Shown: one piece after another, positions 4,214 through 31,905 of the stretch
How the letters are laid out: every line of letters starts with the position of its first letter
How positions within the stretch are numbered: position 1 is the stretch's first letter
Assembly: GCA_965220745.1 (NCBI GenBank)
Contig: CBDCQT010000010.1
Span: forward strand, 288,001 to 352,000
Reading direction: 5' to 3'
From: Alphaproteobacteria bacterium
Lineage (GTDB): Bacteria > Pseudomonadota > Alphaproteobacteria > UBA828
DNA: 64,000 nucleotides
The notes under the pieces: model-generated
The model's input: only the letters and a program-made list of their open reading frames with translations
Databases searched by the model: none
What the model was told of the DNA's origin: nothing
Translations under genes and position numbers: made by a program

Positions 4214-4246
4214 GGGTTCCTCTCCCTGTTTGCGCTCTCGCGGGCG

Positions 4247-4885: not shown

Positions 4886-4986
4886 CGGAAGCCAGCCGTA
4901 CTCGTCAGCGCGTGGTCGGCCGGCGGGCAGTCGTGGGTGCGCCGTGCCGATGACGACCCTGCCGGCAATTACAGGCTAACGCCACT

Positions 4987-5073
4987 CTATTTCATGGACC
5001 GATCGACGTGCTCTGAGCGCCAGCGCGGGATCAGCATGCGGATCAGCGTCGATCCCTTGTCGATGAAGGTGTG
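4987..5073 (-). pseudogene. Displaced native 3' end of the cytochrome b561 gene at 30761-31294
   Basis: Reads HTFIDKGSTLIRMLIPRWRSEHVDRSMK*; joins in frame to ...AALK at 30803 through the 11-bp repeat, giving the family-typical ALKHxFIDKxxTLxRML. Confidence 0.9.
5063..5073 (+). repeat. Left att core, ATGAAGGTGTG
   Basis: Identical 11-mer at 30792-30802. Confidence 0.9.
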
Positions 5074-5390
5074 ACAACTTGCAGGCAGGACTAGCTCTCG
5101 GTTACACATCTGATCAGCGTTGCGATCTCCTCCAATACTGTCCATTTTACAGACACTTGGACGTCTTGTCAACGGATTTCGCGTGGAGAGACGGGGTCCA
5201 TAAGGCAGAATCCTCGATAGCTCGATAGTTGCATTCGGGGACTTGACGTATTTCATTCGAATGCGGGCGACGCAATCTGGTTGTACTCTCTCGAAGCCCT
5301 TGCAGAACTTGATTTTTCAATCCATAACACATATGTAACGTTGTCTCTGGCAGCTATCGAGCCGGTAGGCGAGGCGTTGGCACATTTCGC

Positions 5391-5455
5391 GCGTATTGCG
5401 CGCGTAATACGCAGCAAAATTTGCCCACCTTATGGCGACACAGGCACGACACAGG
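5391..5455. promoter_or_regulatory. Candidate oriT / RHH operator region
   Basis: Near-perfect palindrome GCGTATT-GCGCGCGT-AATACGC (5391-5412) and direct repeat CGACACAGG at 5436 and 5447 (11-bp period), directly upstream of the RHH genes. Confidence 0.45.
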
Positions 5456-5479
5456 AGGTCATACCGTGGGGCGGACGGC

Positions 5480-5806
5480 ATGAGCGGGGCAGCCGAGGGG
5501 CGCAAGCGGCAGCGCGCCATGATGGCCACAGACAGCGACTGGCAGGCGCTCAAGGAGCGCGCCGACGCTGCCGGTATGGATGTCTCGCGCTTCATTCTTG
5601 AGCGTCTGACGGCGCCTGTTGCGGTGCCGGCAGATCCGGTCATGACGCGCGATCTCGCGGTCGCAGTGGCGCGGATCGAGCGCATGGTCAGGGTGCTCTA
5701 CGAGGTCGAGAAAGAACGCGTCGAGGGTTCCGCAGGGGCGGATACCTGGCAGGCTCTGGTGCGCCGTGCCGGTGCACGGATTAATGCCGAGGAGGCACTC
5801 GGGTGA
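5480..5806 (+). CDS. Ribbon-helix-helix protein (MobC/TrwA-like) 1
   Basis: AMMATDSDWQALKERADAAGMDVSRFILERL fits the RHH pattern; GTGA overlap with next gene. Confidence 0.75.
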   Translation: MSGAAEGRKRQRAMMATDSDWQALKERADAAGMDVSRFILERLTAPVAVPADPVMTRDLAVAVARIERMVRVLYEVEKERVEGSAGADTWQALVRRAGARINAEEALG

Positions 5807-6162
5807 CGGCAATCGAGGGAGGCGGGAAGCGGGAGATTGCGCGCATCCGCAGCATCTACTGCTCGCCGGAGAACCGCGCATTGATCGGACGCCGGGCCAA
5901 GGAGGCGGGGATGAGTTTCTCGCGCTTCATGATCGCCTGCGCGCTTCATGGGGCAGACGCCGACGACGACGAGGGTCCTCGCCTTGTCCTGTCCGAGGAT
6001 GAGCAGCGGCAGCTACATGAGCGCGTGGCGCTTCTTGACCGGTGCAACGAGGCGCTGCTGTCGCGTCTGCCGGGGACGGAGATATCGGCGCTCGGCGCAC
6101 TCGCCTTCCTGGTTCGGGAAGCTCGTACCGGGTTCGGCGACGAGAGCGGGGACGGTTCATGA
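5803..6162 (+). CDS. Ribbon-helix-helix protein (MobC-like) 2
   Basis: RSIYCSPENRALIGRRAKEAGMSFSRFMIACAL; ATGA overlap with next gene. Confidence 0.75.
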   Translation: MTAIEGGGKREIARIRSIYCSPENRALIGRRAKEAGMSFSRFMIACALHGADADDDEGPRLVLSEDEQRQLHERVALLDRCNEALLSRLPGTEISALGALAFLVREARTGFGDESGDGS

Positions 6163-6605
6163 GGCGGCGTGGCCGGCGCCTGCCGAAGGCGTACTCGCTC
6201 TCCTGCACCGACAGCGATTGGGGACGCGTGCGGGTTCTGGCCGAGCGAAAGGGGCTCTCCATCTCACGCTACATGGTCGAGTGCGGGCTCACCGTGGACC
6301 CGACGACAGAGCCTGAGCCGCTGCCCCGGCTCGTGCTGGACGAGGCGGAGCAGCGCACCCTTCTGGACCATGTGACCGCCATTGCGGAGCGCACGGTGGA
6401 GGCAGAGACGGACGAGGCGGTGATGACGAGGGTGCGCAACTCTCTCGCCTTCCTGGCCGAGGAGACGATGCGAACCATGATGCGCGACGGCCGCGAGGAG
6501 GAGCTGCGGGCAACTCTGACAGAGCTCTTCGGCGAGCAGGTCGCAGCGGCGACCGGCGACCGCCTCCGCGCGCGCACGAGCGTCGAGAGTCCGGGCTCGC
6601 AGTGA
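6159..6605 (+). CDS. Ribbon-helix-helix protein (MobC-like) 3
   Basis: YSLSCTDSDWGRVRVLAERKGLSISRYMVECGL; shares PRLVLxExEQRxLxxxV with RHH 2. Confidence 0.75.
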   Translation: MRRRGRRLPKAYSLSCTDSDWGRVRVLAERKGLSISRYMVECGLTVDPTTEPEPLPRLVLDEAEQRTLLDHVTAIAERTVEAETDEAVMTRVRNSLAFLAEETMRTMMRDGREEELRATLTELFGEQVAAATGDRLRARTSVESPGSQ

Positions 6606-6696
6606 TGGAAGGGCGCCCCGCCGCCGGTTGTAGGAGACCGACTCCATACCGGGAGTTCGGGCCAGTGGTGATTGAATTCAAAGCCGGCGGGGCGCA

Positions 6697-9600
6697 TCAG
6701 AGTTCGAGGCCCATGTCGATGTCGCGCTCTATTGCCTTGCTGGCTTCGAGTTCCTGCTGACGGCGTTCGATCTCGGCCTTGTCCGATGCCAGGGTGGACT
6801 CGATCCGCGCCGACATGCGCCTGAGGTCGTCCTCCGCGCCCGGCCGGCTGTCGAGATGCGTGCCGAAGGTCTCGGGATCGTCGAGGATGCGGCGGCAGCC
6901 GTCGAGGGCGCGCTGGGCGTCCTCGCTCCATTCTTTGTAGCCGGGATCCTCGGTGACATGGGCGCGCTTACTGGCAGCGATAGCCGCGTGCTCTTCCCGC
7001 TGCCGGATCGAGGCGGCGGCCGCTGACAGAGCCCGGTCCAGGAAGCGCTCCGCAGCCTTGCGGTTCTCCTTCGTCGCCTCGTCCAGGACCGTCTCCTTCT
7101 CCGCAGGCGGTTGCCGGGGAGCTGTCTCCGCCGAGACCGAGGTCGAGTCGGGGGTCGAGACCGAGGTTGCGACCTCGAACTGCTCGCCGATGGCCTTGAG
7201 CGCCGACATCTCCCCGGCAGGGGCGGTCTCCAGCGCCTCGATCAGCGCCTCGCGGTCGTCGGTCAGCAGCACCACGTTGTCGCGGGCGCGGGTCAGCTCC
7301 ACATAGAAGGTCGCCTGATCGGCGACTCCCCCGCGCTCGGTATCCAGGACGGCGATGGCCCGGTCGCAGGTGATTCCCTGGGCAGCATGCACGGTCGACG
7401 AGTAGGCATGGTCAAGGTGGTGAAGCTGAGAATCGTCGCGGGTCATGACGATCTCGCGCCCGTCCCGGGTGCGTATCGTGACGTTCACCCGTCGGATGGA
7501 CAGCACTTCGGCATGCTCACCGTTGATCAGGCTTCGCGCGGGATCGTTGCGGGTCCAGCGCACCCTGTCGCCGGCCTTGAGCACCATCGGCCGGGTCTCG
7601 AAGAGATCGAGGCGGTAGCGGATATAGCCGGAGGGGTCGATGGTGCGCTCCTTGCCGCCGGGAAGGGTGAGCACGACGCGCTCGTCTCCCACCTCCGCCA
7701 CACGGCAGGCATCGCCCGCCTTCGCACGGACGCCGTAGACGTCGTGATGGAATATGGCGACGTCGCCCTCGCGGTAGTTGGCGATATCGCCCTTCTGCGA
7801 GCGGGTCAGGTGGAGATTGACGTAGCGCTCGATCTCCAGCTCGGGGCCGTGCAGCACTCCTTCGTCTTCGAGGCCGTGGCGGACGGCGGCGTTGATCTCG
7901 GCTCTGAGCTCGTGCGTGGGCGCGAGGATGGCCGTTCCGGGCCGCAGGTGAGGATCGAGGTCGAGCCAGAGTTGCGCCGCCTTCCTGCCGAGCTCGTCGC
8001 CGTCAGTCTCCAGGACGCCGTTGCCGAGTTCTTCGACCGCAAGGCGCGGCTCGTCCGCCACCATGTGCAGCACCGCCTGCCGCAGGTCCGCGTCGCGCTG
8101 GCGCACCACCTCGTCCATCCTGGCGGTGGGCATCCCTGCGTCCTGCAGCAGGGCGAAGGGCTGGCCGGCCTCGACGGCCCGCAGCTGCCTGCGGTCGCCG
8201 ATCAGCGCGAGCCGCTCCACGCCGGCCTCGACCGCGACCCGCGTCAAGGCCCGCATCTGGGTCGTGCCGACCATCGACGCCTCGTCCAGGATCAGCAACG
8301 AGCCGCCCAGGGCCTTGCGGGCATCCTCCATTTTCTCAGGGGCAGCGATGCCGTCGCCCACGTCGCGGTAGCGCGTGAGGAACCACTGGAGAGTGCGCGC
8401 CGGGATGTCGGCTTCGCCTTCGAGCACGCGCGCGGCGCTCGCCGAGGGGGCCAGTCCGACGATCTGCCGCCCGGCCAATTCGGCCACAGCACGCAGCATG
8501 GTGGTCTTGCCGGAGCCCGCATGGCCCTGCACCCCCACCGTGACATGAGGCGACAGCAGGATTCCGCGCACGGCATCGCGCTGGCCGGGGTTCAGCCCGG
8601 CAGCGTCCAGCCGCGCCTCCACCGCCTCTGCCGGCGCCAGGCCGTGTCCGGCGTTCAGGCCGGCGCGCATCCCGGCAATGATCTCGCGCTCGGCGTTGCG
8701 CGCCCGATCGGTGACGAAGGCCAGGTCTGCTCTCCGCGCCGTCGCTTCGATCAGGTGCCCGTCGCGACGGAGCCGGGCGATACCGGCGTCCAGCGCGTCG
8801 AGCGAGTGCCTGCCGCCCCCGTGGGCCAGCGCCCAGGCGCGCAGGTCGTTGGCGGAGAATACCGTGCGCCGCTCCTCCAGGTGCTCCACGGCCTGCCGCA
8901 CCACCGACAGTGCCGACGGAGCCGCTCGCGCCTCGCTCTGTAGAAACGCCGACGCTTCGACGCCGTTGCGGCCGCGCGCCGTGTCGCGATCGCGTGCGGG
9001 GCCGAGTTCCTGCGCCCGCGCCTGCCAGGTCTCCTGCAGGACCTGCCGGTCGGGCTCCGCCTTGCGACGCCGCGTATAGAGCGCGGCCTGCTGTGCTCTC
9101 GCTGGCGTGTTCTCCCAACCCCGCTCCTGCATGTAGTCCAACAACTCGCGGCGGCGGGTCGAGAACGCGTCCAGCATCGGCTTGCCGTAGCCCGCGATCT
9201 CGAACCCCGGCATCCTGCCCACCAGCGTCGGCACCGTGGCGTAGCCGATTTTCTCGAGCCCCATGCGCAGCTCGTTCCGGTAGTAGGCGCCGATGAGAAG
9301 CTTCGACCGCTCGACGGCGGTGAACTCGGCGCTGCGCCACTCCCCGTTCCGGCCGCGGGTCATGTTGGCGATCACGGCGTGCGTGTGCAGCTGCGGGTCG
9401 AGGTTGCGGCTTGCGAGATGCCGGAAAGTCGCCGCAGCCATGCCGTCGGCCTCCACCCTGGGCCGGCGCCCGGTTGCCGGGTCGTAGCTCCGGGTCTGCA
9501 ACAGCTCGGTCTCGATGAAGCCCAGCGTGGCGCGTACCGCCTCGTCGTGCGCCCTCACCACCCGCGCGCCGGTCTTCGGGGCCGCGTAGACCAGCGCCTC

Positions 9601-9891
9601 CAGGGATACTGACTTCGGCGCCGAGAGGGTCACGTCCACGCCTGGCCTGTGCTGGTGCTCGCCGTCACGCAACCGCCCGAGGCGAATATCGGTGCCGGGC
9701 ACGTATCCGGCCAGGAGTTCATCGAAGCGCTTCGGCTTCACCGGCCCGTGCAGGCCCATCAACGCCGCCGCCTCGCCGTACCAGCCGCTCGCCTTGCGGT
9801 GCTCCGGGTCTCCCTTCGCGTAGTAGCCGTCCGCCTCGAAGTAGTGCACCGTCGTGGCGGCAGCCTTCAGGCGCGTGACGGTCGCGACCAT
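6697..9891 (-). CDS. MobF (TrwC/TraI-like) relaxase-helicase
   Basis: N-terminal YFEADGYY tyrosines, DVTLSAPKSVS, DPQLHTHAVIAN HUH motif, QGHAGSGKTT Walker A, LDEASM, HAAQG, YVELTRAR. Confidence 0.95.
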   Translation of the reverse strand: MVATVTRLKAAATTVHYFEADGYYAKGDPEHRKASGWYGEAAALMGLHGPVKPKRFDELLAGYVPGTDIRLGRLRDGEHQHRPGVDVTLSAPKSVSLEALVYAAPKTGARVVRAHDEAVRATLGFIETELLQTRSYDPATGRRPRVEADGMAAATFRHLASRNLDPQLHTHAVIANMTRGRNGEWRSAEFTAVERSKLLIGAYYRNELRMGLEKIGYATVPTLVGRMPGFEIAGYGKPMLDAFSTRRRELLDYMQERGWENTPARAQQAALYTRRRKAEPDRQVLQETWQARAQELGPARDRDTARGRNGVEASAFLQSEARAAPSALSVVRQAVEHLEERRTVFSANDLRAWALAHGGGRHSLDALDAGIARLRRDGHLIEATARRADLAFVTDRARNAEREIIAGMRAGLNAGHGLAPAEAVEARLDAAGLNPGQRDAVRGILLSPHVTVGVQGHAGSGKTTMLRAVAELAGRQIVGLAPSASAARVLEGEADIPARTLQWFLTRYRDVGDGIAAPEKMEDARKALGGSLLILDEASMVGTTQMRALTRVAVEAGVERLALIGDRRQLRAVEAGQPFALLQDAGMPTARMDEVVRQRDADLRQAVLHMVADEPRLAVEELGNGVLETDGDELGRKAAQLWLDLDPHLRPGTAILAPTHELRAEINAAVRHGLEDEGVLHGPELEIERYVNLHLTRSQKGDIANYREGDVAIFHHDVYGVRAKAGDACRVAEVGDERVVLTLPGGKERTIDPSGYIRYRLDLFETRPMVLKAGDRVRWTRNDPARSLINGEHAEVLSIRRVNVTIRTRDGREIVMTRDDSQLHHLDHAYSSTVHAAQGITCDRAIAVLDTERGGVADQATFYVELTRARDNVVLLTDDREALIEALETAPAGEMSALKAIGEQFEVATSVSTPDSTSVSAETAPRQPPAEKETVLDEATKENRKAAERFLDRALSAAAASIRQREEHAAIAASKRAHVTEDPGYKEWSEDAQRALDGCRRILDDPETFGTHLDSRPGAEDDLRRMSARIESTLASDKAEIERRQQELEASKAIERDIDMGLEL

Positions 9892-9897
9892 GGCTGC

Positions 9898-20356: not shown

Positions 20357-20411
20357 ACTTGACGGCGGGTTTCGACGACACTTGACGGCGGTTCCGACGT
20401 TACTTGGCGGG
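20357..20411. repeat. About 2.5 tandem copies of a 22-23 bp unit (ACTTGACGGCGG..TT.CGACG), probably IS21-type terminal repeats
   Basis: Units start at 20357, 20380 and 20402; lie downstream of the IstB remnant. Confidence 0.5.
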
Positions 20412-20654
20412 ATCGTGGCCTTGTCGGCGCGCTGTCTGCTCCGGAACTGGTGCCGGGGGTGGTTGCCTCCCTGGTGTTTTCGTGGGGGCTGGCCGGAGGC
20501 CAGCCCGGAGCAGGCGTAAGCGAGCCTGTTTTGTTCTGCAATGCGTTGCGGGGCACGCTGGCAAGCCCCTTCATCGAGCATGCTGGCGCGCGTACTCCGC
20601 CTGACGGCCGGGGCTCCCTCGATGCGGCTTCCTCCTTCGAGCGGCGGGGGTGTG

Positions 20655-20905
20655 TTGCGCTCTGGCAGGCGATGAGGATGGACTTGCGCGCGTGGCGGGC
20701 CTCGACGATCTCAAGCAGGTCTCGGCGGCCCTCTGCAGAAAAGCCATGGAGGTTCCAGTCGTCGAGGAGGAGCAGGTCGACCCTTGCGAGGCGCTTCATG
20801 AAACGTTCCTGTGTGCCCTTGTCGCGGGCGCGGGCCAGCGCCGCGACCAGTTTGGGGACGCGGCGGTAGAGGACGGAGCGCTTCTGGCGGCAGGTCTGGT
20901 GGGCG
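20655..20905 (-). pseudogene. istB: IS21-family IstB ATPase fragment
   Basis: LYRRVPKL...LARVDLLLLDDW...RRDLLEIVEARHARKS; Walker A degraded; boundaries approximate. Confidence 0.8.
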
Positions 20906-21079
20906 GAGCGTGCAGGCGACGAATGTCTTATCGGCGCCGGAATGCGCCTTGATCGTCGAACGATCACCGAAACGGGCCCCAATGCTCATCCGTCATGCAG
21001 GTTGCAGAACGTCGTCGCGGCCACCATCTACATTAGGGACCATACGCAGATCAAAGCGCTGCCGGCAGACCGATCGGGT

Positions 21080-21240
21080 GATGGACATCGACATCGCCGC
21101 AAGCACCATTGAGGCTGCGCTTTGCCAGCTCCCTGAGGCGCTTGTGTAGGGGGAGAAAATCAAAGCGTCTGCCGAGCGCTGCGAGATTGCGCCGAGCACG
21201 GCGCATCGCTGGCGCCGCCGCTTCCTAGCGGCGGATAATC
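21080..21240 (+). pseudogene. IS1595-like transposase fragment
   Basis: ALV*GEKIKASAERCEIAPSTAHRWRRRFL HTH segment with internal stop; boundaries approximate. Confidence 0.55.
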
Positions 21241-21368
21241 AGGCGCGTGAGTGGCTTGCCGGAATTGTCGAGCAGGCGGCGGAGGCCAGACCACGCCTGC
21301 GAGTTGCAATTTGAGCCTTACAAGGGGCTCAGCAGGCCACGTAAACATAGAGTCGAAAGGAATACACA

Positions 21369-21600
21369 GATGACGTACCAATTGTTTGGTGAAATATTGA
21401 GCACACTCCTTATCGCAGCAGCAGGTTATTTTGTTAAGCAGAAATTCGACATACAGATTGAACGCATTCGATCTGATTTCTCTGAAAAACTTTCCCAGTT
21501 CCGAATTCGAGAAAGTTACCTCCACAGAAGGCGGGTCGAGGCAATTGAAGAGGTATACAATATGGCAATGGATGCCGAACACAGCTTGCAATTTTTTGGG
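21369..21600 (+). pseudogene. Truncated AT-rich hypothetical gene with N-terminal TM helix
   Basis: MTYQLFGEILSTLLIAAAGYF...; abrupt switch to high GC at a T6/G8 run near 21595. Confidence 0.5.
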
Positions 21601-21639
21601 GGGGTGCGCCGGGGCTTCACCTCGCCACCCTCCGTTCGA

Positions 21640-22028
21640 GGGCCTCGCGTTCCGCTTTCAGCCATGCGCGGTGCCTTCCCGAGCCAGGCGCGGACCGCCA
21701 TCACGCCGGCGTCTGCGTCCGCACGGTCCAGCACGCGCTCGGCAAGCTCCAGGAGCTCGGGCTGATCGTGTGCACGGGCGGCATGCGCTCCCGGCGCGGC
21801 CGGCTGGTCGCCGTCTGGCGCATCGTGCTGGCCCGGCTAAAAGCGGACATGGTGTCCGGTCTAAGAGTCAAACCAACAAAGAAACAACAGGCTCGGCAAG
21901 GAAAGAGCGCGCCGCAGGCAGCCTGGGACGCGCTCTCGGCGCAGTACGGGTGGGCAACGCTTATGTCGTGGTCTTCGGGGGCGATTGAAGCCGCTCTCGC
22001 ACGTCGCGAGGGACTTGAGCGTCTATAG
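21640..22028 (+). pseudogene. Winged-HTH replication-protein remnant (phage/plasmid)
   Basis: FPSQAR.. then, after a frameshift, AGVCVRTVQHALGKLQELGLI (HTH_36-like). Confidence 0.55.
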
Positions 22029-22257
22029 CATCGGCCAGAACAAGCCTCGCCCACTCGCTTCGGCTCCGCTGAAACAAGCCGCCTTTCCTGGCGTGGTCGA
22101 TACACGCCAACATCGTCGGGCTGACGCGCACCAACAGAGTTTCCGACAGGGCTGCGCCGGGCGCGGGCGACGCCTTCGCCTCAAGAGCTTCGCGCTCCGC
22201 TGCCAGCTTGGCGCGGCGCCGCTTGAAATAGTCGCCGCGATCACGTTTCTTGGTCAT
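21961..22257 (-). CDS. Small DNA-binding protein, CopG/RHH-like
   Basis: LLVRVSPTMLACIDHAR...SRSEWARLVL. Confidence 0.55.
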   Translation of the reverse strand: MTKKRDRGDYFKRRRAKLAAEREALEAKASPAPGAALSETLLVRVSPTMLACIDHARKGGLFQRSRSEWARLVLADAIDAQVPRDVRERLQSPPKTTT

Positions 22258-22265
22258 TTTGTTTC

Positions 22266-22928
22266 TCAGAACATTCTAAAGCCGTCATTATGACAAAGCT
22301 CTAAATCATGTTCGATTAGCCTCCACAATACCTCTTCATTATCGCTGCCAGGACCATCGTATACCCTGCGTAACTTAGAATCTCTGATCCGTTTCGCATT
22401 TTTGAGTTTTTGTCGTATTGGCAGAAGTTTTGCTGACTTGATATTCTTTAGTTTCGTAAAAGCATCCTCGAATCGGTCATGGCAAGCCGCGCTTTCTTTG
22501 CGGCCTTTCTCGTAGCAGCGATACATCTCATTGGCTTTGTTCGCAGCGTCCAGTTCACAATTACCGGAAGACGATCCATATCTCTCCCGTACCTTCTCCC
22601 AATCGTTACATCCAAGAGTTTCCTTCAAATCCTTTAGAGCCCTGTCGCGTTTCTCCAGACAGTTACCTTTATCCTTCCATGCTCTTCTGCTACAGTTATT
22701 CCTTTCCTCCTCGGCTTTGTTGAGTTGCGCATTTGCCTCTCTCTGGATGGGTCGGTGTTTTTCTTCAATAGTCTTTACGTCTTGCCTATACTCGGCCATG
22801 ATTTCCATATAAGATATGCAAGTATCGTCAGATTGAGAATGTGATGTATCGGCAAATCCAATGCATACTAAAAGGGTTATTCCATACAAATAGAGTTTCG
22901 TCCATCGATTACCTTTGGGAAAGGTCAT
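22266..22928 (-). CDS. Hypothetical secreted Cys/Lys-rich helical protein
   Basis: Signal peptide after MTFPKGNRW; low GC; 8 nt from the next gene. Confidence 0.65.
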   Translation of the reverse strand: MTFPKGNRWTKLYLYGITLLVCIGFADTSHSQSDDTCISYMEIMAEYRQDVKTIEEKHRPIQREANAQLNKAEEERNNCSRRAWKDKGNCLEKRDRALKDLKETLGCNDWEKVRERYGSSSGNCELDAANKANEMYRCYEKGRKESAACHDRFEDAFTKLKNIKSAKLLPIRQKLKNAKRIRDSKLRRVYDGPGSDNEEVLWRLIEHDLELCHNDGFRMF

Positions 22929-23439
22929 GCTGCTCCTCCATCCTCGCGCCGGCATTAGAAATAGAAAAACCCGAAACCCGGTTCCTCCGATTCCTGCTCT
23001 TCCTCCGAGTAAAGCTCCGCTTGCACGTAAAGCATCGCCATCAGTACCATCCTTTGCGCTGCCGGCTTGCCATATTCGGACGCACTGCGCTTGTTCAGCT
23101 ATGAGGCTGTGTGCTGCGAAATGCAGACAGTCTTCCATCGTCTCTCGTTGCTCGATTGGCGCGTTATCCACAATCCGCTACACGTACCAGATGTGTCCTC
23201 CAGCGCTCACGCTTGGCTATCCCACACCTCGCTATTGACGCCATCTGCGAGCTTCGCGATCAGGCCGGCAAGGCTGAGGTCGAGAATGGCGGCAAGCTGC
23301 ATCGTCTCGCCAGGGGTGAGTTCAACGCCGCGCTCTTCGTTGCGAGCGCGGCGTATCTCTTCGATGATCTTGTGCGAGGACATGTCATGCTCTTCGATTA
23401 CGTTGACAATGCGCACGTGATACATCAATGCCGCACCAG

Positions 23440-24247
23440 GATCAATCAAGAGTCGCTCGATTACATGCGCGACGCTGCCGAACGGGCGCGAGGATCGTCC
23501 GGCAACGAAATGCATTTCCGGCAGTACGACCTCATTCAGCCGGTCGATGCAGAGAAACAGGTGATCGTCCAGGTGCGCGACTACCGACAGTGCATCGTCG
23601 AGAACGCGCCGGAGCTCGCCAGCGATATCGTGGTCGGTATCGACCTAGGCGGCAGCGTCAGCATGACGTGCGTCGCGGCCTACAGCCTTGCAACCAAGCG
23701 CCTGAAGACATGGGGCGCCTTCGGCGACGATCCGCCGCTCTCGGTAAGGGCGAAGGCGGACCGCAGGGGGAGCCTCTATGACAGGATCGTGCGCGAAGGT
23801 GAACTACGCACGTGCCCGAGCCGCATCACGCCTGTCATACCGTTCCTCAAGGACGCTTTAGCGGAGCTCGGCGCCGTGGGCAGGATCACCGCGATCGGTG
23901 CTGACAGGCACCGGCGCGCGGAAGCGGAACAGGCGTTTTCGGAGGCGGGGTTGCCGCGCATTGCTGTCATGTGGCGCGGCCAGGGCGCCAGCGCCACGGC
24001 GGACGGAAGCCATGATGTGCGCGCCTTCCAGCGCATGATCTTCGATCACCGGATGGTCACGCGGGGCAGCACCATGCTCGAAAGCGCGGTCGCGTCATCC
24101 GTGCTGCGCTTCGACGGCGCCGGCAACCCGGCGCTCGACAAGGCCGCGAACAACACGCGGATCGATGCGCTCTCGGCTTCCGTGGTCGCGGCCGGCCTGG
24201 CGGAGCTCGTCAGGCCGGCGCCGCTGCTACAGGTGCACGTGCTATGA
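23440..24247 (+). pseudogene. Phage terminase large subunit, C-terminal nuclease half only
   Basis: VGIDLGGS..SMT, ADRHR, ALDKAANNTRIDALSA; no ATPase domain upstream; left boundary approximate. Confidence 0.75.
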
Positions 24248-24555
24248 GCCGCCATCACCGACACCGCGAGCGCGGCTACGTCCCTCCCTTCCTGCGTCTC
24301 TGTGTGCTCGATCGGGCGGACTATGCCTGCGAAAGCTGCGGCACGCGCGGCCGGAAGCTCGAAAGCGATCACATCATCCCGGTCGCGGACGGCGGCGAAA
24401 CGACCATGGAGAACCTGCAAGCGCTCTGCCGGGATTGCCACCTGGCGAAGACGCGGCGGGAAAGCGGCACGTCGGAAGCGACTATCGAGTGGACGCAGTT
24501 CGCCAACCGGAGCGATTTCGAGCGCAGGAAGGACCGGCGCCGTGCCTCCGTATGA
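24244..24555 (+). CDS. HNH endonuclease (phage packaging-associated type)
   Basis: CESCG...SDHIIP..GG....NLQALCRDCH; ATGA overlap with the terminase stop. Confidence 0.9.
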   Translation: MSRHHRHRERGYVPPFLRLCVLDRADYACESCGTRGRKLESDHIIPVADGGETTMENLQALCRDCHLAKTRRESGTSEATIEWTQFANRSDFERRKDRRRASV

Positions 24556-25341
24556 TCGCGTGATCCGCTATCTGCCGATCAACCGGACGCCGACGCTGCC
24601 GATCACCGTTGACGGCTCAAGCGACGGGCTGTCGCTCGTCACGCGCCGCAACCCGACGCTCGGCAATGTCTCGTAAATTGTGCTACAAAAGGACGGCATC
24701 GACGTGACCAGCGGAACGCTCGCGGGATGATCGGCGCGGGGAGCGTCGTGAAGATCGATCAGGGTATCTACGAGCTCGCGGAAGCGATCGATTTTCAGGT
24801 GCTTGCCGCCGCCGCCCGGCCGATCAGTTCCCACTCCGCATCGGTAGCCATGACCGCGCGCTAGCGCCGTCCGCCGGCATCCTCCCTCATCGTGGCAAGC
24901 CGCCCGTAGGGACCTGCATCGATAGGGACACGCGGCCACTCATTGATGCACACTATATCACTTAAATCCTATGGTATTCCTCGCATCTGAGTATATGTGC
25001 CGCCATTGTGTCCTCGCAGAGCGATTCCCATCCAACACTGAAGCCATACCAGTGCTAAACGGCGGTGGCATGTCTAATACGAGAGGCTTGCCGCCGCGCC
25101 CATCAATCACCTTGCGCGGCCAAGGGCCCTCGCTTACGCTCTGCTCGGGCTGGCCAACGGCCAGCCCCCGGACATCACCAACGGAGGGGCACCACCGCCA
25201 CATCCGGGCGATGAAGCTGGCCCAGCATGTGCCCGCAGCGCGGTCAAGTGTTCCCGGAGTCTGTGAAACCTCATCAGACATGCCAAGTGTAATCGAAGCG
25301 GAGAGAATTGGATCAGCCACGGCACTCCAAGAAGACAGTAG

Positions 25342-25725
25342 ATGACACAGCAGTTGACATTTGTTGAAGTAGAAAGGCATGTCGTGCGCGTCGCTGACGT
25401 TGTACGCGTGTCCGCCGAGCACATCACAACCAGAGCAGAGACTGATGAAGTTTTCCACCATAAGGATGAGGAAGAACAAAAGGAGCGCGCGTACCAGAGA
25501 GGAAGCGGAAGTTGGCTTGAACTGGTAAAGCGTAATACAGTCAATCTCGATCCCCTTTACGATCCTGATGATGATCTATTTGGCTCCAAAGGTAATATTA
25601 TTGAAACAACTTATCGCGTAACTCTCCGCACCCAATGGGTTGTGGTACTTTGCAGAGGTCGCCCCGTCATATTGCATAAACGCTCTTCCTACAACAAACT
25701 GATGAATGCCATGGGAGTAGACTAG
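25342..25725 (+). CDS. Hypothetical protein
   Basis: 127-aa ATG ORF in low-GC cargo; no recognisable motif. Confidence 0.5.
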   Translation: MTQQLTFVEVERHVVRVADVVRVSAEHITTRAETDEVFHHKDEEEQKERAYQRGSGSWLELVKRNTVNLDPLYDPDDDLFGSKGNIIETTYRVTLRTQWVVVLCRGRPVILHKRSSYNKLMNAMGVD

Positions 25726-25919
25726 GCCCTGCGCCCATACATTAATTGTCGGGAGGACCAAGTAATGACCTTAGCTTCTACATTGCGAGAGCACGACGAC
25801 GAAGTGCTACGATCTATAACCTACTATTTGTTCCTCTAAATAGAAGGAGTTATTGTCTTCAGGCCGATAAGAAGTCAGCTCGACGTGTCGAGTCTTGCGA
25901 TATTATCGAGAGGTGTAAA

Positions 25920-26366
25920 GTGTTGAAACTCCGTTTAATCAAGAACGACGTTGAATGCAATAGCCTGTTGAGTCATGGCGTCTACGTTTTTCAATGCAAG
26001 GAAACCAAGGAAATTCTCTATATCGGAAGCGCCTATAAGCAACCCCTAGCAAAGCGGTTTTCTCAGCATTTTGACTCAGGGGATACCGGCGCGACTTTTT
26101 ACCGAAATTGGAAAAAGGATAACCCTTCGAAGTGTTTTGATGAATTTGAGGGCGTTCTTAGAAAATGCAGAATTAAGATTATTTGTGTTGATGACGCCTG
26201 TGATGTGGCTGAAACTGTCTGTGAACTCGAGCATGCCTTACTAAGAAAACTGGATGCGAAATACAACAGGAAGAAACCGAAGTGTACTCGAAAAACGATA
26301 CCCGATGAATGCCTAAGGGAGATTGCCGACTACATTACGAATTGTACAGACATGGTAATAGCCTGA
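25920..26366 (+). CDS. GIY-YIG nuclease family protein
   Basis: GVYVF...ILYIGSA...LAKRFSQH...ELE...YN; GTG start after GAGAGG. Confidence 0.85.
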   Translation: MLKLRLIKNDVECNSLLSHGVYVFQCKETKEILYIGSAYKQPLAKRFSQHFDSGDTGATFYRNWKKDNPSKCFDEFEGVLRKCRIKIICVDDACDVAETVCELEHALLRKLDAKYNRKKPKCTRKTIPDECLREIADYITNCTDMVIA

Positions 26367-26415
26367 CAGTTGCCGCTCTAGGCAGAGTGGTGGATCAGGC
26401 GGCCTTCAGGGCGGC

Positions 26416-26904
26416 TTGGGTAGGTTAGAAGTACAGGCGCCCGTCTCCGGTGTGGTATTCGGTCTGGCGGTGTTCGCACCGGGGGAGGTGGTGCGGCCGG
26501 GCGAGCCGATCCTGAAGATCGTCCCGGAAGATGCCGGGCTCGTGGTGATTGCACGGGTCGACATGATCGATGTGGACCAGGTGTGGCCGGAGCAGGAGGC
26601 AATGCTGCGGTTCTCGGCGTTTCCGGCGCGGGAGACGCCGGAGATAGCCGGTCACGTGGTCCGGGTGTCGGCGGACGCGGTGCGCGACGGCGAGACCGGC
26701 CTCTTCTGGTACGAGGTCGAGCTCGCCATGGACCGGCCGGCTGGCTCCGGCGGGGAGGCGCAGCCAAGCCGCTCGTTCGGCAGTCTGGAGGTGACGCCCG
26801 GCACGCCAGTGGAGGTGCTCATCCGGACAGAGGAGCGATCGGTTGTGAGCTAACTGTTGGAGCCGGCGACGGACTCTTTCCAGCGCTCGCTGCGCGAGGA
26901 GTGA
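26416..26904 (+). pseudogene. HlyD-family type I secretion adaptor, C-terminal fragment with premature stop
   Basis: APVSGVV...GEVVRPGEPILKIVP...PGTPVEVLIRTEERSVVS*LLEP...SLREE; TAA at 26851 where Tyr is usual. Confidence 0.85.
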
Positions 26905-26919
26905 GCGGGGACTGCGCGG

Positions 26920-27363
26920 AATGTACAGCTCCGCTGGCGACACCATCGAGATCCCGCTGGTCAACGACCTGCGCGAGATCGCTGGCGTGGCGGCGCACAG
27001 GCCGACGAGTTCTGTTCGGCCCGGGAGATTGCTCCGGAGATGGCCTACCCGGTCAATCTTTCGATCGACGAGTTGCTGAGCAATACCATCGGCTTCGACG
27101 ATGACGAGACCCACCGTATCGCGGTCGTCGTGCGGCTGGAGCAGGAGGCGCTTGTCGTCGTGATCGTCGACAACGGCGCGGCGTTCGATCCGACGCGGAT
27201 GTCCGAACCGGATATCGAGGCGCCGCTCAAGGATCGCGACCTGGGCGGCCCCAGCCTGCTGCTCGTCAACCGGACGATGGACCGCGTCGTCGACTACTAC
27301 CGGCGGGCCGGCTGCAATGTCGTCACCCAGACCAAGAACGCGGCCGCGGTGTCGAAGGCATGA
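26920..27363 (+). pseudogene. RsbW-like anti-sigma factor / HATPase, frameshifted
   Basis: IPLVNDLREI (other frame), then VNLSIDELLSNTI, DNGAAFDPT, degenerate GGxGL. Confidence 0.75.
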
Positions 27364-27414
27364 CGCCGCCGACGCGGCATCAATACGCGGTCTTCCCGCA
27401 CTGGAGCAATGGAT

Positions 27415-28295
27415 CATGGACATCTGCATCACACATCTGCATCACACGCACGCGCTGCTGCAGGAAGGCCCCCGCTCGGGTCCGGTCAGGGTCGGCTGGC
27501 TGCTCAACCAAGCGCGCGGCGGCATGATTTACCAGTCGCCCTCGCGGGTCCGCTCGGCGGAGTTGAACAGGCGCCACGCCAAGTCGGCCTCGTGCTGCCC
27601 GGCGATTCTGGGACTCGAGAACCGGTAATTCGAGGTGGAATGCCCCTTAGACCTGCACCTCGCCTTCGCTCGCGACAAGGACGGCAAGCCGAGACTCTAC
27701 AATGTCCTAGTGTATTGACCGAGAAGTTCGTTGCATAAAATGTCAGGAATTTGTAGGTGTAATCAATATGTTGGGTGTTCGCGAAACTCAGGATCGGGAC
27801 ACTAGGCGCGAAGCCACCGGTGCGCGCGAACAATCTCGCCGCGCCCTTAACGCCACCGGCGAGGCGGAATGGCGCTATCCGGACCACCCGACGATCCAGA
27901 TCAGCCTACCCTACGTGTTCGTTGCCGACGAGCCCGTCTACCTCTCGCAGGTCGCGCCGATCATGCACTACCGTGCCGAGCCGTGGCCCGGCACGATCTT
28001 CGGGGGCCGGTTCCCCATCGACGTCTGGCCGCGGCCGCTGCTGTGGGCCTTCGAGTGGCACGATGTCGAGAGGGAGCTGAAGATCGCCCGCGCCGCGCCG
28101 CTCTTCTACTGCTAGTTCGAGACCCTGCATCAGGACCGCCCGATCCAGTTCGTGGAAGCCGAGCGCACGCCGGTGCTGACGGAGCATCTGGAGCACATTT
28201 CCGGGGCGATGGAATTCGTGAACCAGAGTTTCTCGCTGTTCAGGACGGCGGAAGAACGTCGCCCCATGGCGCTTATAGTTTCCAGAAAGCACTGA
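27415..28295 (+). pseudogene. Hypothetical gene with stops, a frameshift and a MITE insertion
   Basis: KSASCCPAI...*FEVECP...GGRFPIDVWPRPLLWAFEW...LFYC*FE; removing the insert restores YNVLGAKPPVR. Confidence 0.7.
27707..27805. mobile_element. MITE-like insertion (91 bp) flanked by a CTAG duplication
   Basis: CTAG at 27707 and 27802; imperfect inverted ends TGTATTGACCGAGAAGTTCG / TGTCCCGATCCTGAGTTTCG; AT-rich interior. Confidence 0.75.
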
Positions 28296-28380
28296 ACGGA
28301 GCCGGCTGAACCAGGGAATTTCATTGCCTGTGTATATGGCTCTGAAAGTGAGACGCGGGATGGCCTCACTGTATGGTGGC

Positions 28381-29541
28381 TCATTCCCGCTCTCTGGCCA
28401 CACCGCAATGCAGTTCCCGCGCGATAGCGGCGCCGATGCGTTCCGCCGCCGCCTCGGTCTCCCGGTCTCCGACGTGAGCGTAGCGCAGCGTCATGCTCGG
28501 GCGCTTGTGGCCCAGCAGGCGGGAGACAACCGGTAGCGGGACGCCCTGCAGCACGGCGTGGCTGGCGAACGTATGTCGAAGGTCATGAAGGCGCACATCC
28601 TCAATGCCGGCTTCCTTGCGCGCCAAGCGCCAGAGCGGCAGGTGATGCGAGAGGGGCCGTTCGGGACTCCTTGGCGCGGGGAAGACGTAGACGCTCTCCG
28701 ACCGCGGCTGCCCCTCCAGGACGGCGCGCGCCTGCGCATTCAGAAAGACCCTCCGCGGACCAGTTTTGGCATCCGTCAGATTGAGCGTGTCACCGTCCAC
28801 GTCCTGCCAGCGCAGGGTCAGGATCTCGCTCTTGCGGCAGCCGGTCAGCAGCAGAAGGCGGATTGCGTCCGCCTGCCGCGCGCGCGCCGGCCGCGCGCCG
28901 GTGAGACGATCCAGCGCGCCATGAAGCCGGCCGACTTCATCGCGCGAGAGGAAGCGGGTGAGCTTCGGGCGGGGGTTCCACTTGATGCCGTGCGCGGGGT
29001 TCGTCCGGATATGGCCGCAGACAATCGCATGGTTCAGGACCCGGCAGAGCAGGTTCAACGCCCTGTTGGCCGCGCCCGGTGCGGTCCGGCTGCACTCGTC
29101 GAACCAGCTGGTCACGCCGGCCCGGTCGATCCGGTCCAGCGGCACCGGGCCGAAGGCCGGAAGCAGGCGCCTTGCGACGGCCCTGGCCTGTGCCTTTCTC
29201 GTGGACGGCTTGCCCCGGTCGAAACACGCCTTGCCCGGACCCACGGCGAACTCCCCGAACGTCGGGACCGCTCTGCCTTCCGGCCTGCCGGACCGCGCCC
29301 CGGTCTCGATGGCGAGGCACCCGGCGCGTGCTTCGTCGACGCTCATCAGCGCCGCGGGTCCCAGAGTGATCCTGCGTGCATCGCCCTCGCCCTTCCGGCG
29401 ATACACGAAGCTTCGGTGTCCCGAAGGCCGCACCCGCACACCGAGACCCGCATGACAGGTGTCCCAAACCGTGTACTCGCGTGCGGTCGGTGCCAGCTTG
29501 CCGACGCTGACGTCGGTCAGACGCCGCCTCTTCGCGGCCAT
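28381..29541 (-). CDS. Tyrosine recombinase/integrase with N-terminal arm-binding domain
   Basis: GLGVRV..SG.RSF arm domain; TGCRKSE, AKTG, HDLRH, LGH, LRY: complete R-K-H-R-H-Y set. Confidence 0.95.
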   Translation of the reverse strand: MAAKRRRLTDVSVGKLAPTAREYTVWDTCHAGLGVRVRPSGHRSFVYRRKGEGDARRITLGPAALMSVDEARAGCLAIETGARSGRPEGRAVPTFGEFAVGPGKACFDRGKPSTRKAQARAVARRLLPAFGPVPLDRIDRAGVTSWFDECSRTAPGAANRALNLLCRVLNHAIVCGHIRTNPAHGIKWNPRPKLTRFLSRDEVGRLHGALDRLTGARPARARQADAIRLLLLTGCRKSEILTLRWQDVDGDTLNLTDAKTGPRRVFLNAQARAVLEGQPRSESVYVFPAPRSPERPLSHHLPLWRLARKEAGIEDVRLHDLRHTFASHAVLQGVPLPVVSRLLGHKRPSMTLRYAHVGDRETEAAAERIGAAIARELHCGVARERE

Positions 29542-29544
29542 GTC

Positions 29545-30669
29545 TCAACCCTCCAGTGCGGCGCCGACGGTGTCGGCCGCATCGCGCACCATGGCGTCTG
29601 ACAGGTGGGTGTATTTCAGGGTCGTCGCCGGATTCTTGTGCCCGAGCAGCCGGCCGATGGTCAGCACCGTCTCGCCCTGCGCCAGCGCCATGCTGGCGTA
29701 CGTATGACGGCAGTCATGAAGGCGGACATCGTGCAAATCCGCTTCGGCCCTCACGCGATACCAGACCATATCCACCGCCTCCGCGCTCAGAGAGCTGTCC
29801 GTTCTTGGCGATGGAAAGACCCAGGCTGCCGTGCGAGGCAGGTTGTCGAGGATGGCGCGCGCGGCGGACGAGAGCCAGATCGTGCGCGGTCCGACTTTGC
29901 TGTCGGGCAGGAACAGCTTGCCCTCGCGGTAGTAGCGCCACTTCAGAGTGACGATTTCGCCCTTTCGGCATCCGGTGAGCAGCAGCAGTCGTATGATCGC
30001 CACAGCCTGAGGATGATTGGCTTCGTAGTGCTCCAGCACCTCGCCCAGCCGGCGTATCTCCGCGGTCGACAGGTAGCGCTCCCGCCCCTGCCGCCGGTAT
30101 CGCTTGATGCCCTTGCAAGGATTGGTGCCCTCCGGCCGGTAGCCGTAGACTTCGGCCTGACGCATGATGACGGAGAGGATGGGGGCGGATCGGTCCGCCG
30201 CCACCGGAGTATTGTGGAGGGATGCAAACCATTGCTTGACGTCCTGGGCGGCGATGTCAGTGATCAGGCGTCCCTCGAACCAAGGCAGGATCTGGTTCCG
30301 GTAGTAGCCCCGATTGACGCTGAGCGTCGACGGCTTCCAGTTCCGGGCGTAGCGCCGAAACACTTCTTCGGCGACGGTCTCGAACGGGGTGTCCGGCAAA
30401 ATCGCAGCGCCCTCGTCGTTTCCGTTCCGGATCGAGGCCAGCATGACCCTGGCCCGTTCACGGGCATCGTCGACGCCGATGGAGCCGGACTGGCCGACGA
30501 TCCTCCAGACGCGACAACCATTGTGCTGGCTATGGATGAAGTAGCGCTTGTTGCCCGAGGGCAGTACCCTGACGCCGAAGCCCTTGAGTTCGCGGTCGCG
30601 AACGTCGTATGCGGACTTTCGGGGTTTGAGCGCGTCGACGCGGCGTTGACTGAGGCGAAGTGTTGCCAT
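29545..30669 (-). CDS. Tyrosine recombinase/integrase with N-terminal arm-binding domain
   Basis: GFGVRVLPSG arm domain; TGCRKGE, SKVG, HDCRH, LGH, LKY; ATG after GGAGG. Confidence 0.95.
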   Translation of the reverse strand: MATLRLSQRRVDALKPRKSAYDVRDRELKGFGVRVLPSGNKRYFIHSQHNGCRVWRIVGQSGSIGVDDARERARVMLASIRNGNDEGAAILPDTPFETVAEEVFRRYARNWKPSTLSVNRGYYRNQILPWFEGRLITDIAAQDVKQWFASLHNTPVAADRSAPILSVIMRQAEVYGYRPEGTNPCKGIKRYRRQGRERYLSTAEIRRLGEVLEHYEANHPQAVAIIRLLLLTGCRKGEIVTLKWRYYREGKLFLPDSKVGPRTIWLSSAARAILDNLPRTAAWVFPSPRTDSSLSAEAVDMVWYRVRAEADLHDVRLHDCRHTYASMALAQGETVLTIGRLLGHKNPATTLKYTHLSDAMVRDAADTVGAALEG

Positions 30670-30760
30670 TGGCTTTCCTCCTGCGTTCCGAGTTGCAGCC
30701 GGGGCCAAGACACGAACCGATTCCGCGTCTTCCGGCCAGAGCAGGAGGAAAAAAGCAACG

Positions 30761-31294
30761 CTATGTCAGTACATTAGCACCGAAGGTGCGCATGAAGGTG
30801 TGCTTGAGGGCCGCAATGGCGTGAATGCCGACCAAAGCGATGCCGCCGTAGGCCAGGTAGTAGTGGAGATCGATGGCGAGGTCACGGGCACCGGTGGATA
30901 CGTCGAAGAACGCCGGCACCTCGAAGAGCCCGAACATGTCGATGCCCGCACCCTCGGAGGTCGAGATCAGATAGCCGGTGACCGGCAGCACGACCAGAAG
31001 CGCACCGAGCATCCAGTGCGTGGCGGTGGCGCCGGCGCGTTCGTAAGCGCGTACCTCGGGCCCGTAGCCGGGTTTGCGATCGACCAGCTTCCAGCCGAAC
31101 TTGGCCAGCGCGAGCGCCAGCACCACGATTCCGATGGCCCTATGGAGTGCGAGGGAGTCGTTGTACCAGGGATCGTAATAGGTGAGCCCCACCATCCAGG
31201 CGCCGAGCCCGACGAGGCCCGTGAAGACGATGGCGATGGACCAGTGAAAGCCGATGGCGACGAGCCCGTAGTGGTCTCGACCGCTTCGCCACAT
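30761..31294 (-). CDS. yceJ: Cytochrome b561 (YceJ-like); last 10 codons supplied by the island
   Basis: YG...FHW, LHR, LHY, IHA heme-ligand His pattern; downstream of yceI. Confidence 0.88.
   Translation of the reverse strand: MWRSGRDHYGLVAIGFHWSIAIVFTGLVGLGAWMVGLTYYDPWYNDSLALHRAIGIVVLALALAKFGWKLVDRKPGYGPEVRAYERAGATATHWMLGALLVVLPVTGYLISTSEGAGIDMFGLFEVPAFFDVSTGARDLAIDLHYYLAYGGIALVGIHAIAALKHTFMRTFGANVLT
30792..30802 (+). repeat. Right att core, ATGAAGGTGTG
   Basis: Identical to 5063-5073. Confidence 0.9.
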
Positions 31295-31329: not shown

Positions 31330-31905
31330 CTAGTTGCGGGTGCCCTCGATGAAGAGGAAGAGCTCCATGGATTCGGACGCGGGCCCCAGGTTGTAGCCCA
31401 TGCCGAATTCCTTGCGGGTGATTGTCACCGTGCCTTCGAAGCCGGCGCGATAGCCGCCCCAGGGGTCTTTGCCCTCCCCCACCTTCTTGACGGCGATGGC
31501 GATCGGCTTGGTGACGCCGTGGAGCATCAGGTCTCCCGTCATCACGCCGCTCTCGGCATCGCCCTCGTAGCCGGTGCTGACGAAGGTGGCGGTGGGGAAC
31601 TCATCGATGTTCAGAAAGTCCGCTGAGCGCAGGTGCTTGTCGCGCTCCGCGTGGTTGGTATCGACGCTGGCCGTGTCGATCTCGACCGTGATCGACTGAG
31701 CCTCCGGCCCTGCCTCTGAATCGAACGTGAAGCTGCCCGAAATCCTCTCGAAGGTGCCGATCATCCAGGACACGCCGACGTGTGAGATCTTGAACTGAAC
31801 GAAGCTGTGGCCCGAATCGATCGTGTAGTCGGCGGCCTTGGCGGCTGGTGCCGAGAAAGCCAGGATGGTTGCGGCCAGGGCAGTCCCGAGAGTGCGTTTG
31901 AGCAT
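31330..31905 (-). CDS. yceI: YceI-family periplasmic polyisoprenoid-binding protein
   Basis: Signal peptide, YTID.GHS, SVDTNHAERDKHLRSADF, DPWGGYRAGF. Confidence 0.95.
   Translation of the reverse strand: MLKRTLGTALAATILAFSAPAAKAADYTIDSGHSFVQFKISHVGVSWMIGTFERISGSFTFDSEAGPEAQSITVEIDTASVDTNHAERDKHLRSADFLNIDEFPTATFVSTGYEGDAESGVMTGDLMLHGVTKPIAIAVKKVGEGKDPWGGYRAGFEGTVTITRKEFGMGYNLGPASESMELFLFIEGTRN

Follow-up and report, generated by a model that had tools for sequence, protein, structure and literature searches.

A probable mobilizable island with two coupled P4-type integrases, inserted at the 3' end of an alphaproteobacterial cytochrome b561 gene

The stretch analysed here (the window) comprises 64,000 nt of an alphaproteobacterial genome of the UBA828 lineage (assembly GCA_965220745.1, contig CBDCQT010000010.1, positions 288,001 to 352,000) and holds an island at 5074-30791, which interrupts yceJ, a cytochrome b561 gene, at its 3' end. 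The island is probably an integrative mobilizable element (IME) that entered yceJ by site-specific recombination within or beside an 11-bp core through two coupled tyrosine integrases, Int1 and Int2. The sequences show directly where the island begins and ends, that relatives have the site unoccupied, which genes the island holds, and that the integrase pair recurs and co-diverges. Coordinates refer to the window unless they are preceded by a contig of the genome (C5, C13 and so on), and the features are collected in Table 1.

The 11-mer ATGAAGGTGTG was found exactly twice in the window, at 5063-5073 and 30792-30802, both times on the plus strand. The chance expectation for these two copies was 0.02, and two or more copies occurred in none of 100 shuffles. 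The insert bounded by the two copies measures 25,729 bp and interrupts yceJ near its 3' terminus. The interrupted gene scored 81.3 bits with PF01292 (cut-off 30.1) and ends in ...AALKHTF followed by MRTFGANVLT and a stop; these final 10 codons and their stop (30761-30791) belong to the island. At the other end of the island, the minus strand of 4987-5073 translates as HTFIDKGSTLIRMLIPRWRSEHVDRSMK followed by a stop, which is the severed native tail of yceJ. Carbonic anhydrase, GFA and MOSC genes, all on the minus strand, occupy the left flank and yceI the right flank. In addition to the PF01292 score, the gene product showed the conserved His pair of the last helix of prokaryotic cytochromes b561. 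Its IHA...KH aligned with LHA...AH of the Escherichia coli protein (PDB 5OC0), the alignment reaching the KH of KHTF and placing the His of KHTF on a conserved His of 5OC0. The preliminary description of this DNA had put the substitute tail directly after the last heme-ligand His; the conserved position was borne out by the alignment, and the residue is one that we take to be a heme ligand.

The yceI-yceJ DNA was searched in 41 related genomes and was found nearly full length in 16 of the 20 congeners; a 25-nt match was all that was obtained in congener G017, and G002, G003 and G012 had none. In nine of the 11 congener loci that were fetched, the window flanks 3737-5073 and 30792-31905 meet and overlap by the core; eight of these loci show an overlap of 11 nt, and L005 one of 9 nt. 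The exact 11-mer was present in the empty-site loci L002, L007, L008, L009 and L010. An uninterrupted yceJ with the native tail (of the type ...KHTFIDKGSTLIRML...) was found in all 11 fetched loci and in five of five further congeners, that is in 16/16 same-genus genomes holding the gene, and none of these 16 genes ends in MRTFGANVLT. Carbonic anhydrase adjoins yceJ in seven of the 11 loci (L002, L003, L005, L007, L008, L010 and L012), the GFA gene follows yceJ directly in L004, L006 and L009, and L011 yielded the tail alone. The claims that the direct repeat bounds the island, that removal of the insert rebuilds yceJ, that the island supplies a substitute tail, and that island-free relatives show both an empty site and yceJ next to carbonic anhydrase all held in these comparisons. 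In addition, Logan contigs from four runs of one sample, probably the source sample, showed the match to the flanks breaking at the same 11 bp and continuing into both island ends; as the four runs share one sample, they are not independent. The preliminary description had also set the protein-coding target against the usual tRNA genes. The target is indeed yceJ, but islands of this kind are known to insert at the 3' ends of protein-coding genes, so this is nothing out of the ordinary.

Both Int1 and Int2 have the arm-binding, core-binding and catalytic domains of P4-type (DUF4102) integrases together with the residues R, K, H-x-x-R, H and Y. The two proteins are 37% identical, and the start of Int2 lies 3 nt past the stop of Int1. 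A total of six Int1/Int2 pairs, all in the same order, were found in the 4.8-Mb genome (Int1-type identities of 100, 81, 78, 61, 61 and 61%) along with five more distant tandem integrase pairs. One genome pair has a stop codon inside Int2, and one locus carries three integrase genes in a row, the third Int2-like. No tRNA gene was present within 3 kb at 10 of the 11 tandem pairs.

Homologous integrase pairs were gathered in a scan of relatives with one genome per species, in which 285 loci encoded an Int1 relative and 79 loci were kept, mostly from metagenome-assembled genomes (MAGs) of Alphaproteobacteria with several loci per genome. Int2 directly follows Int1 in 73 of the 79 loci; the contig was too short in two, and four had no Int2. 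Two of these four unpaired loci lie on long contigs, namely L038 with a truncated Int1 and L033 with Int1 followed by a second Int1-type match. In the 67 full-length pairs the intergenic gap was always between -4 and +3 nt and the catalytic R, K, H, R, H and Y were kept in both proteins. The pairwise identities of Int1 and Int2 were correlated with r = 0.93 over the 2211 locus pairs formed by these 67, which shows that the two genes co-diverge. In a tree of 29 integrases the first genes grouped apart from the second genes, each set forming its own clade (SH-aLRT 95 and 97), and the pair of the Shewanella oneidensis MR-1 megaplasmid fell in these same clades on long branches. The five distant pairs of the genome formed a second lineage with the same first-gene and second-gene split. 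The distant pairs lie at C8:8385-10760, C9:25019-27360, C10:806726-809100, C13:706056-708359 and C3:182277-184643; the copies on C8 and C9 have upstream sequences in common, of which a short motif is also found in the copy on C10. The plasmid matches that were opened (Shewanella, Sphingobium and Vibrio) showed two overlapping genes in 3/3 cases, each annotated only as integrase. Across 64 loci no further conserved gene was found within 2.5 kb downstream of Int2, and the genes at 25746..28403 downstream of Int2 in the island are not conserved in other members. Neither yceJ nor yceI was near the paired integrases in any of the 79 fetched loci. In an even sample of the class, with only four candidates per genome scored, close Int1 relatives (E ≤1e-100) were found in 4/401 genomes, this one included; with several loci per genome, the close Int1 family is therefore patchy but locally abundant.

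On this evolutionary evidence Int1 and Int2 appear to act jointly, which we consider the likelier case. An unlikely alternative is that one integrase, most likely Int1 beside the junction, integrates and excises the island and the other serves directionality, regulation or a second target or is redundant. Single P4-type integrases suffice for many islands, and the identity of only 37% between Int1 and Int2, the unpaired loci L038 and L033 on long contigs and the genome pair with a stop inside Int2 would all suit such an arrangement. Set against it are the six catalytic residues in both proteins of 67/67 pairs, the translational coupling, the co-divergence, and a gene order kept across two deep clades that include a gammaproteobacterial plasmid; moreover, a purely regulatory paralogue would not be expected to retain the nucleophile Tyr. 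Tandem accretion at one attachment (att) site is common, and the three integrase genes in a row at one genome locus could be read in that way, so it was also considered whether the two integrases came from two islands accreted at one site. This is very improbable: no third core copy was found inside the island, where a 21-nt pattern allowing up to three mismatches matched the right junction alone, and elements of independent origin would not be expected to show the 3-nt gap, the constant gene order and the co-divergence found in 67 pairs.

More tentatively, and short of an even chance in our estimate, Int1 and Int2 may form an obligate two-protein recombinase with a XerC/XerD-like division of labour, acting on a minimal ACACC core plus a few matching bases in the target, with a spacer beside the core that could change between insertions. 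XerC and XerD are paralogous tyrosine recombinases, both active, which operate together with one half-site for each; they have no arm-binding domain and are encoded by chromosomal housekeeping genes. Int1 and Int2 scored 44-60 bits with the XerC and XerD NCBIfam models, whose cut-offs are about 330, and are not members. XerC/XerD is therefore only a functional analogy, a model for the joint action proposed here.

The integrase-side ('near') end of the window island carries the hairpin GCACC-TTC-GGTGC at 30777-30789. A hairpin of the form GCACC-N3-4-GGTGC, followed by TAA and mostly by further stops, was shared by the near ends of six islands of the genome and of 79/79 fetched loci. Outside the hairpin, ACACC was found at a distance of 6-8 nt in 68 of the 79 junctions and ACAC in 75, compared with 1/79 in a control window. 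The spacer between ACACC and the hairpin was 7 nt in 46 junctions. In the window island the spacer is also 7 nt, and ACACC is carried by the core copy. The motif TGCAA before the Int1 start had 155 copies in the 79 ends and 7.6 in shuffles, the ends being kin and not independent events. In the near end at 30761-30791 (minus strand), TAA, TGA and TAG close all three frames entering from the flank within 29 nt. All three frames were closed within 30 nt in 45 of 84 ends (79 fetched and five of the genome's own, again kin) and in 25 of 1680 shuffled controls.

Seven far (relaxase-side) ends of sibling islands were available from congeners. The same terminus beside the flank GGTGTG was clear in L101, L102, L103 and L106, near variants were found in L105 and L107, and L104 was unclear. 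This flank is the ACACC motif on the opposite strand. Behind the far terminus, the initial 5.7 kb share 78-88% identity with the congener siblings, and an alignment of eight sibling regions showed long conserved blocks in the far-end arm, which is a candidate for the integrase arm sites, the origin of transfer (oriT) and the nikA operator. Each end of the island has, just inside it, one copy of the sub-terminal motif AGCGTTGC-N4-5-TCCTCC; the two copies are inverted relative to each other and are the only ones in the window, and none of 100 shuffles had any match to the motif. A general terminal inverted repeat was also sought by pairwise end alignment and was not significant, with 110/500 shuffles scoring as high. 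The preliminary description could not assign the island to a family. The family is describable by its coupled P4-type integrase pair and its conserved ACACC-spacer-hairpin end, and no name for it was found in the literature searched.

Evidence of movement came from sibling islands. The site taken by a sibling in congener G011 is unoccupied in the present genome (C13:770461-770470); the flanks of the sibling map to C13 with an overlap of 10 nt, and its far junction is identical to the empty site. Another island of G011 has a 12-bp repeat starting with CACACC. In the present genome, one island lies within the end of an IS630-type transposase gene. Among 14 locus pairs whose Int1 proteins are at least 90% identical, 12 have different flanks (flank identity ≤0.50), and the spacers of such pairs were the same or differed mainly beside ACACC. 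For the other islands of the genome, far-end sequence was too little conserved for BLAST, and a k-mer repeat search gave a plausible end pair only for the island at C12:182707-184958. This paired-integrase island is about 46.6 kb long with a 10-bp repeat and is inserted in an element of about 150 bp (C12:138327-138454 and 185076-185101) that has a perfect palindrome at its end. Congener G006 lacks this small element as well as the island, and the empty site of the island could not be demonstrated. A further placement, of the island at C5:128459 in a PhyH-type gene, had no Pfam support and was dropped. At C13:766705-770411 a 3.7-kb insert relative to the congener flank was observed, with an internal repeat that has identical copies at C13:845699 and C5:11333. 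Finally, C10:42745 and C12:276790 show far-end-type termini (GGTGTG, then a nikA-relaxase module) with no matching integrase pair in the expected place, and are possibly decayed or rearranged islands.

The mobilization module lies behind the far end. The relaxase scored 250.6 bits with PF08751 (cut-off 25), 160 bits with AAA_30 and 241 bits with the MobF model NF041492 (cut-off 100). Copies of mobilization protein 1 that are 75-76% identical were found in two other relaxase modules of the genome, and both of these sibling modules hold 58-63% identical copies of the 187-aa open reading frame (ORF) of the island. Mobilization protein 2 matched the MobA model NF041264 below its cut-off (E 7.8e-7). 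The ORF at 9898..11187 has 49-56% identical copies beside two sibling relaxases and no match in Pfam, NCBIfam or PHROG; its Atlas scores (≤0.82) are a lead only. It is conserved only at residues 127-428, so its true start is probably further downstream.

No type IV secretion system (T4SS) or coupling-protein family was above cut-off among the 41 ORFs scanned; the relaxase had a single sub-cut-off T2SSE match in its ATPase region. Coupling-protein matches (PF02534 and PF10412) were found at four loci of the genome, all outside the island (C10:293074-318791). VirB4 gave no match anywhere in the assembled genome with PF03135 or PF12846, and TIGR00929 gave two weak matches of 29 and 28 bits (cut-off 643) at two C13 coupling-protein loci. 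The genome as a whole thus has at least 12 loci with a match to the MobF relaxase, besides the four with coupling-protein matches, and no VirB4-type ATPase was found in it by PF03135, TIGR00929 or PF12846. The island thus shows the sequence-level features of an IME, namely integrases with att repeats, an empty site in relatives, a relaxase of its own and no mating-pore genes; the VirB4-type ATPase, coupling protein and mating-pore genes that define an integrative and conjugative element are absent from it. This agrees with the preliminary description, which had called it an IME with a relaxase and without T4SS or coupling protein. The island could instead be a self-transmissible element whose transfer genes are too divergent to recognise, given that about 10 of its ORFs have no family match, and this is the least credible of the alternatives. 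Nothing in it is VirB4-sized, because no ORF besides the relaxase, the ankyrin protein and the kinase exceeds 430 aa; the unmatched ORFs are not common to the sibling islands, and 25.7 kb minus the known genes is too small for a full mating-pore set.

Taken together, an IME acting through the coupled pair would behave as follows. Strand entry would have taken place within or next to the core of yceJ (CACACCTTCAT on the minus strand), and the site of the island would consist of the relaxase-side terminus, the ACACC core, the 7-nt spacer and the small hairpin at the integrase side. Int1 and Int2, both complete arm-binding P4-type integrases, would most likely act together on it. In the integrated state the island end provides yceJ with the 10-residue substitute tail and its stop codon. 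On excision, the pair would recombine the two core copies, giving a circle and restoring the native yceJ tail. The MobF relaxase and the NikA-like helpers would nick the circle at an oriT in the far-end arm, and, as the island has no coupling protein or mating pore, the strand would leave the cell through those of another conjugative element. In a new host, the pair would integrate the circle where ACACC is followed by bases that match the island spacer.

Several observations weigh against this account. Five further exact copies of the 11-mer are present in the genome and unoccupied (C5:268627, C6:137785, C7:123185, C10:787498 and C13:294983; about 0.8 expected), so the core alone is not sufficient for insertion. 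The near junction of the G011 sibling differs from its far junction at 2 of 10 core positions. That both integrases are required is something we infer from sequence comparison, and the related loci are kin, so that counts across them overstate independence. No oriT was located, the far-end arm holding only a conserved candidate region. An excised circle or an empty site was not seen in the organism itself: aligned to the empty-site locus of the closest relative, the Logan contigs showed the occupied form only, all being junction contigs and none spanning the site; contigs drop rare forms, so the absence of a spanning contig says nothing either way. Metagenomes were also scanned for the near end together with the core (25 nt), a sequence that a circle junction would match as well, and gave 0 matches. 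Finally, no VirB4 was found in the assembly by three models, so there is no helper mating pore in it. The marker-gene completeness of the assembly is 99.96% and plasmids may be missing from it; a helper pore may reside on unassembled plasmids or come from incoming elements.

The occupied form in contigs and the lack of VirB4 in the genome, together with broken pieces in the cargo (an IstB fragment, and a terminase-like ORF whose match is confined to the C-terminal part of the profile), could also mean that the island is a stranded remnant of a single insertion that no longer excises or transfers in this host. We regard this as unlikely, as the core copies are identical and the genes for the two integrases, the relaxase and the NikA-like proteins all have their full length. 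Close siblings are present at other sites in congeners, one of them at a site that is empty here, and rare excision would be invisible in contigs. An IME integrated through the Int1/Int2 pair is still the preferred explanation.

Table 1. Features of the island and its borders in the window.
Feature	Position	Strand	Evidence
Severed native yceJ 3' end, 28 codons and stop	4987..5073	-	Translation; tail match in 16/16 congeners
Core copy, relaxase-side ('far') junction, CACACCTTCAT on minus strand	5063..5073	.	Flank overlap in relatives
Far-end non-coding arm, 358 nt; island terminus ACAAC... (inward)	5074..5431	.	Sibling far ends; 8-region alignment
Sub-terminal repeat AGCGTTGC-N4-TCCTCC, inward	5116..5133	+	Partner 30744-30762
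NikA-like ribbon-helix-helix mobilization protein 1	5432..5806	+	PF21983 E 1.2e-4, below cut-off
NikA/MobA-like mobilization protein 2	5803..6162	+	PF21983 33 bits, cut-off 27
Conserved 187-aa mobilization-module ORF, weak NikA-like signal	6042..6605	+	PF21983 E 0.0016
MobF/TrwC relaxase fused to RecD-like helicase, 1064 aa	6697..9891	-	PF08751, AAA_30, NF041492
ORF accompanying relaxase, no family (429 aa)	9898..11187	-	Copies beside two sibling relaxases
Cargo	10963..25725	.	Family profile searches
Ankyrin/peptidoglycan-binding/MORN protein	10963-12942	+	
Four ORFs without family match	12947-16994		
Ser/Thr kinase	17426-18928	-	
Trypsin-like protease	19490-20332	+	
IstB fragment	20308-20982	-	
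Terminase-large-subunit-like ORF	23111-24247	+	
HNH nuclease	24244-24555	+	
GIY-YIG ORF, downstream of Int2	25746-26366	+	
Three ORFs without family match, downstream of Int2	26425-27432, 27504-27887, 27906-28403	-	
Int2, 386 aa	28381..29541	-	Arm-DNA-bind_3, Phage_int_M, Phage_integrase
Int1, 374 aa from ATG at 30669	29545..30669	-	Arm-DNA-bind_3, Phage_int_SAM_3, Phage_integrase
Integrase-side ('near') end, 122 nt: hairpin, stops, sub-terminal repeat, TGCAA motif	30670..30791	-	
Core copy, integrase-side junction	30792..30802	.	Repeat; congener flank overlap
yceJ as now read	30761..31294	-	PF01292; 5OC0 alignment
yceI, upstream partner of yceJ	31330..31905	-	PF04264, 151 bits

The cargo, about 15 kb in all, has a G+C content of 49-60% over 15-23 kb, compared with about 67% in the flanks, and apart from short repeats no counterpart of it was found in the 20 congeners. 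The Ser/Thr kinase matched PD-T4-6 of PADLOC (E 1.1e-28) over the kinase domain only (residues 17-191 of 500, profile positions 12-186 of 427). With the divergently placed trypsin-like protease it spans 17426-20332 in the low-G+C cargo, and the two are a possible defence pair. A 41-nt inverted repeat (20484-20524 and 25129-25169, 80% complementary) brackets a 4.6-kb segment with the IstB fragment, the terminase-like ORF and the HNH gene, which may be a nested element. In addition, the cargo stretches 20661-20929, 21139-21272 and 24801-25063 recur at about 80-85% identity in many copies across the congeners, with eight copies of the first listed in G018, and look like remnants of insertion sequences (IS) or miniature inverted-repeat transposable elements (MITEs).

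The island itself is ordinary, being a mobilizable island in the end of a conserved gene. Its value is as a clean and complete example of a two-integrase module, with base-resolved ends, an empty site in 16 congeners and a link to a relaxase. The module is multiplied in some marine and sponge- or coral-associated Alphaproteobacteria, and one relative carries at least eight loci of the Int1/Int2 type on a single chromosome. Coupled pairs have gone unnoticed in cultured bacteria as pairs of 'site-specific integrase' genes, for example on the Shewanella oneidensis MR-1 megaplasmid and on Vibrio europaeus and Sphingobium plasmids. If the two proteins were one recombinase acting on a very short core, this would explain landing in ordinary genes and not in tRNA genes; island finders that expect one integrase beside a tRNA gene would tend to miss such islands, and a new compact recombinase pair would be available for study. 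An obligate pair would place the family between classical site-specific islands and transposons, as a further multi-recombinase class beside Tn554, SE, GInt and RIT. It would then be the sole carrier of a relaxase among these classes, the others being described as putatively non-mobilizable in PMC10214605. Coupled P4-type integrase pairs and islands in cytochrome b561 genes were not found described in the literature searched, which did not extend to subscription journals or supplements. In the parts available, a paper on Shewanella integrases (PMC9229058) deals with integron integrases only, and PMC8138268 gave word matches on tandem or paired recombinases and nothing on the coupled-pair arrangement.

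Among known systems, SGI1 inserts in trmE and the dusA islands in dusA, according to PMC6531882 and PMC4482086. Such IMEs share with the present island a tyrosine integrase at one end, short direct repeats, a relaxase of their own, no mating pore and a conserved protein-gene target. The present island differs from them in its two coupled integrases, its MobF/TrwC relaxase with NikA-like helpers and its yceJ target, and no Xis-like gene was recognised in it. The multi-recombinase elements were compared by their descriptions, in the case of Tn554 and SE from PMC10214605. Tn554 (tnpA, tnpB and tnpC) likewise has two side-by-side tyrosine recombinases at one end and a target-specific, non-tRNA insertion. 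Its recombinases are one ordinary and one large protein, with TnpC in addition and no mobilization system, whereas Int1 and Int2 are of equal size (374 and 386 aa) and both arm-binding, with a relaxase module and no conserved third gene. The SE are described there with the gene order intA-tfp-intB-srap, a tfp-srap synteny detected only in Gammaproteobacteria, as putatively non-mobilizable, and as leaving no empty site. The likeness to the SE lies in two catalytic recombinases in one operon at the left end of the element, imperfect terminal inverted repeats, and a short spacer beside a conserved end motif that records the site. The present family differs in having no tfp or srap equivalent, genes 3 nt apart, hosts that are mainly Alphaproteobacteria, and a relaxase; the gap of -4 to +3 nt in 67/67 pairs leaves no room for tfp. 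Finally, GInt and RIT elements also carry several tyrosine recombinases at one end of a cargo island, and the GInts are site-specific with imperfect flanking repeats, as given in PMC5385486. These elements have three recombinase-type genes, with ginD in addition in the GInts, whereas the family described here has two, as found in 73/79 loci, and no equivalent of ginD.

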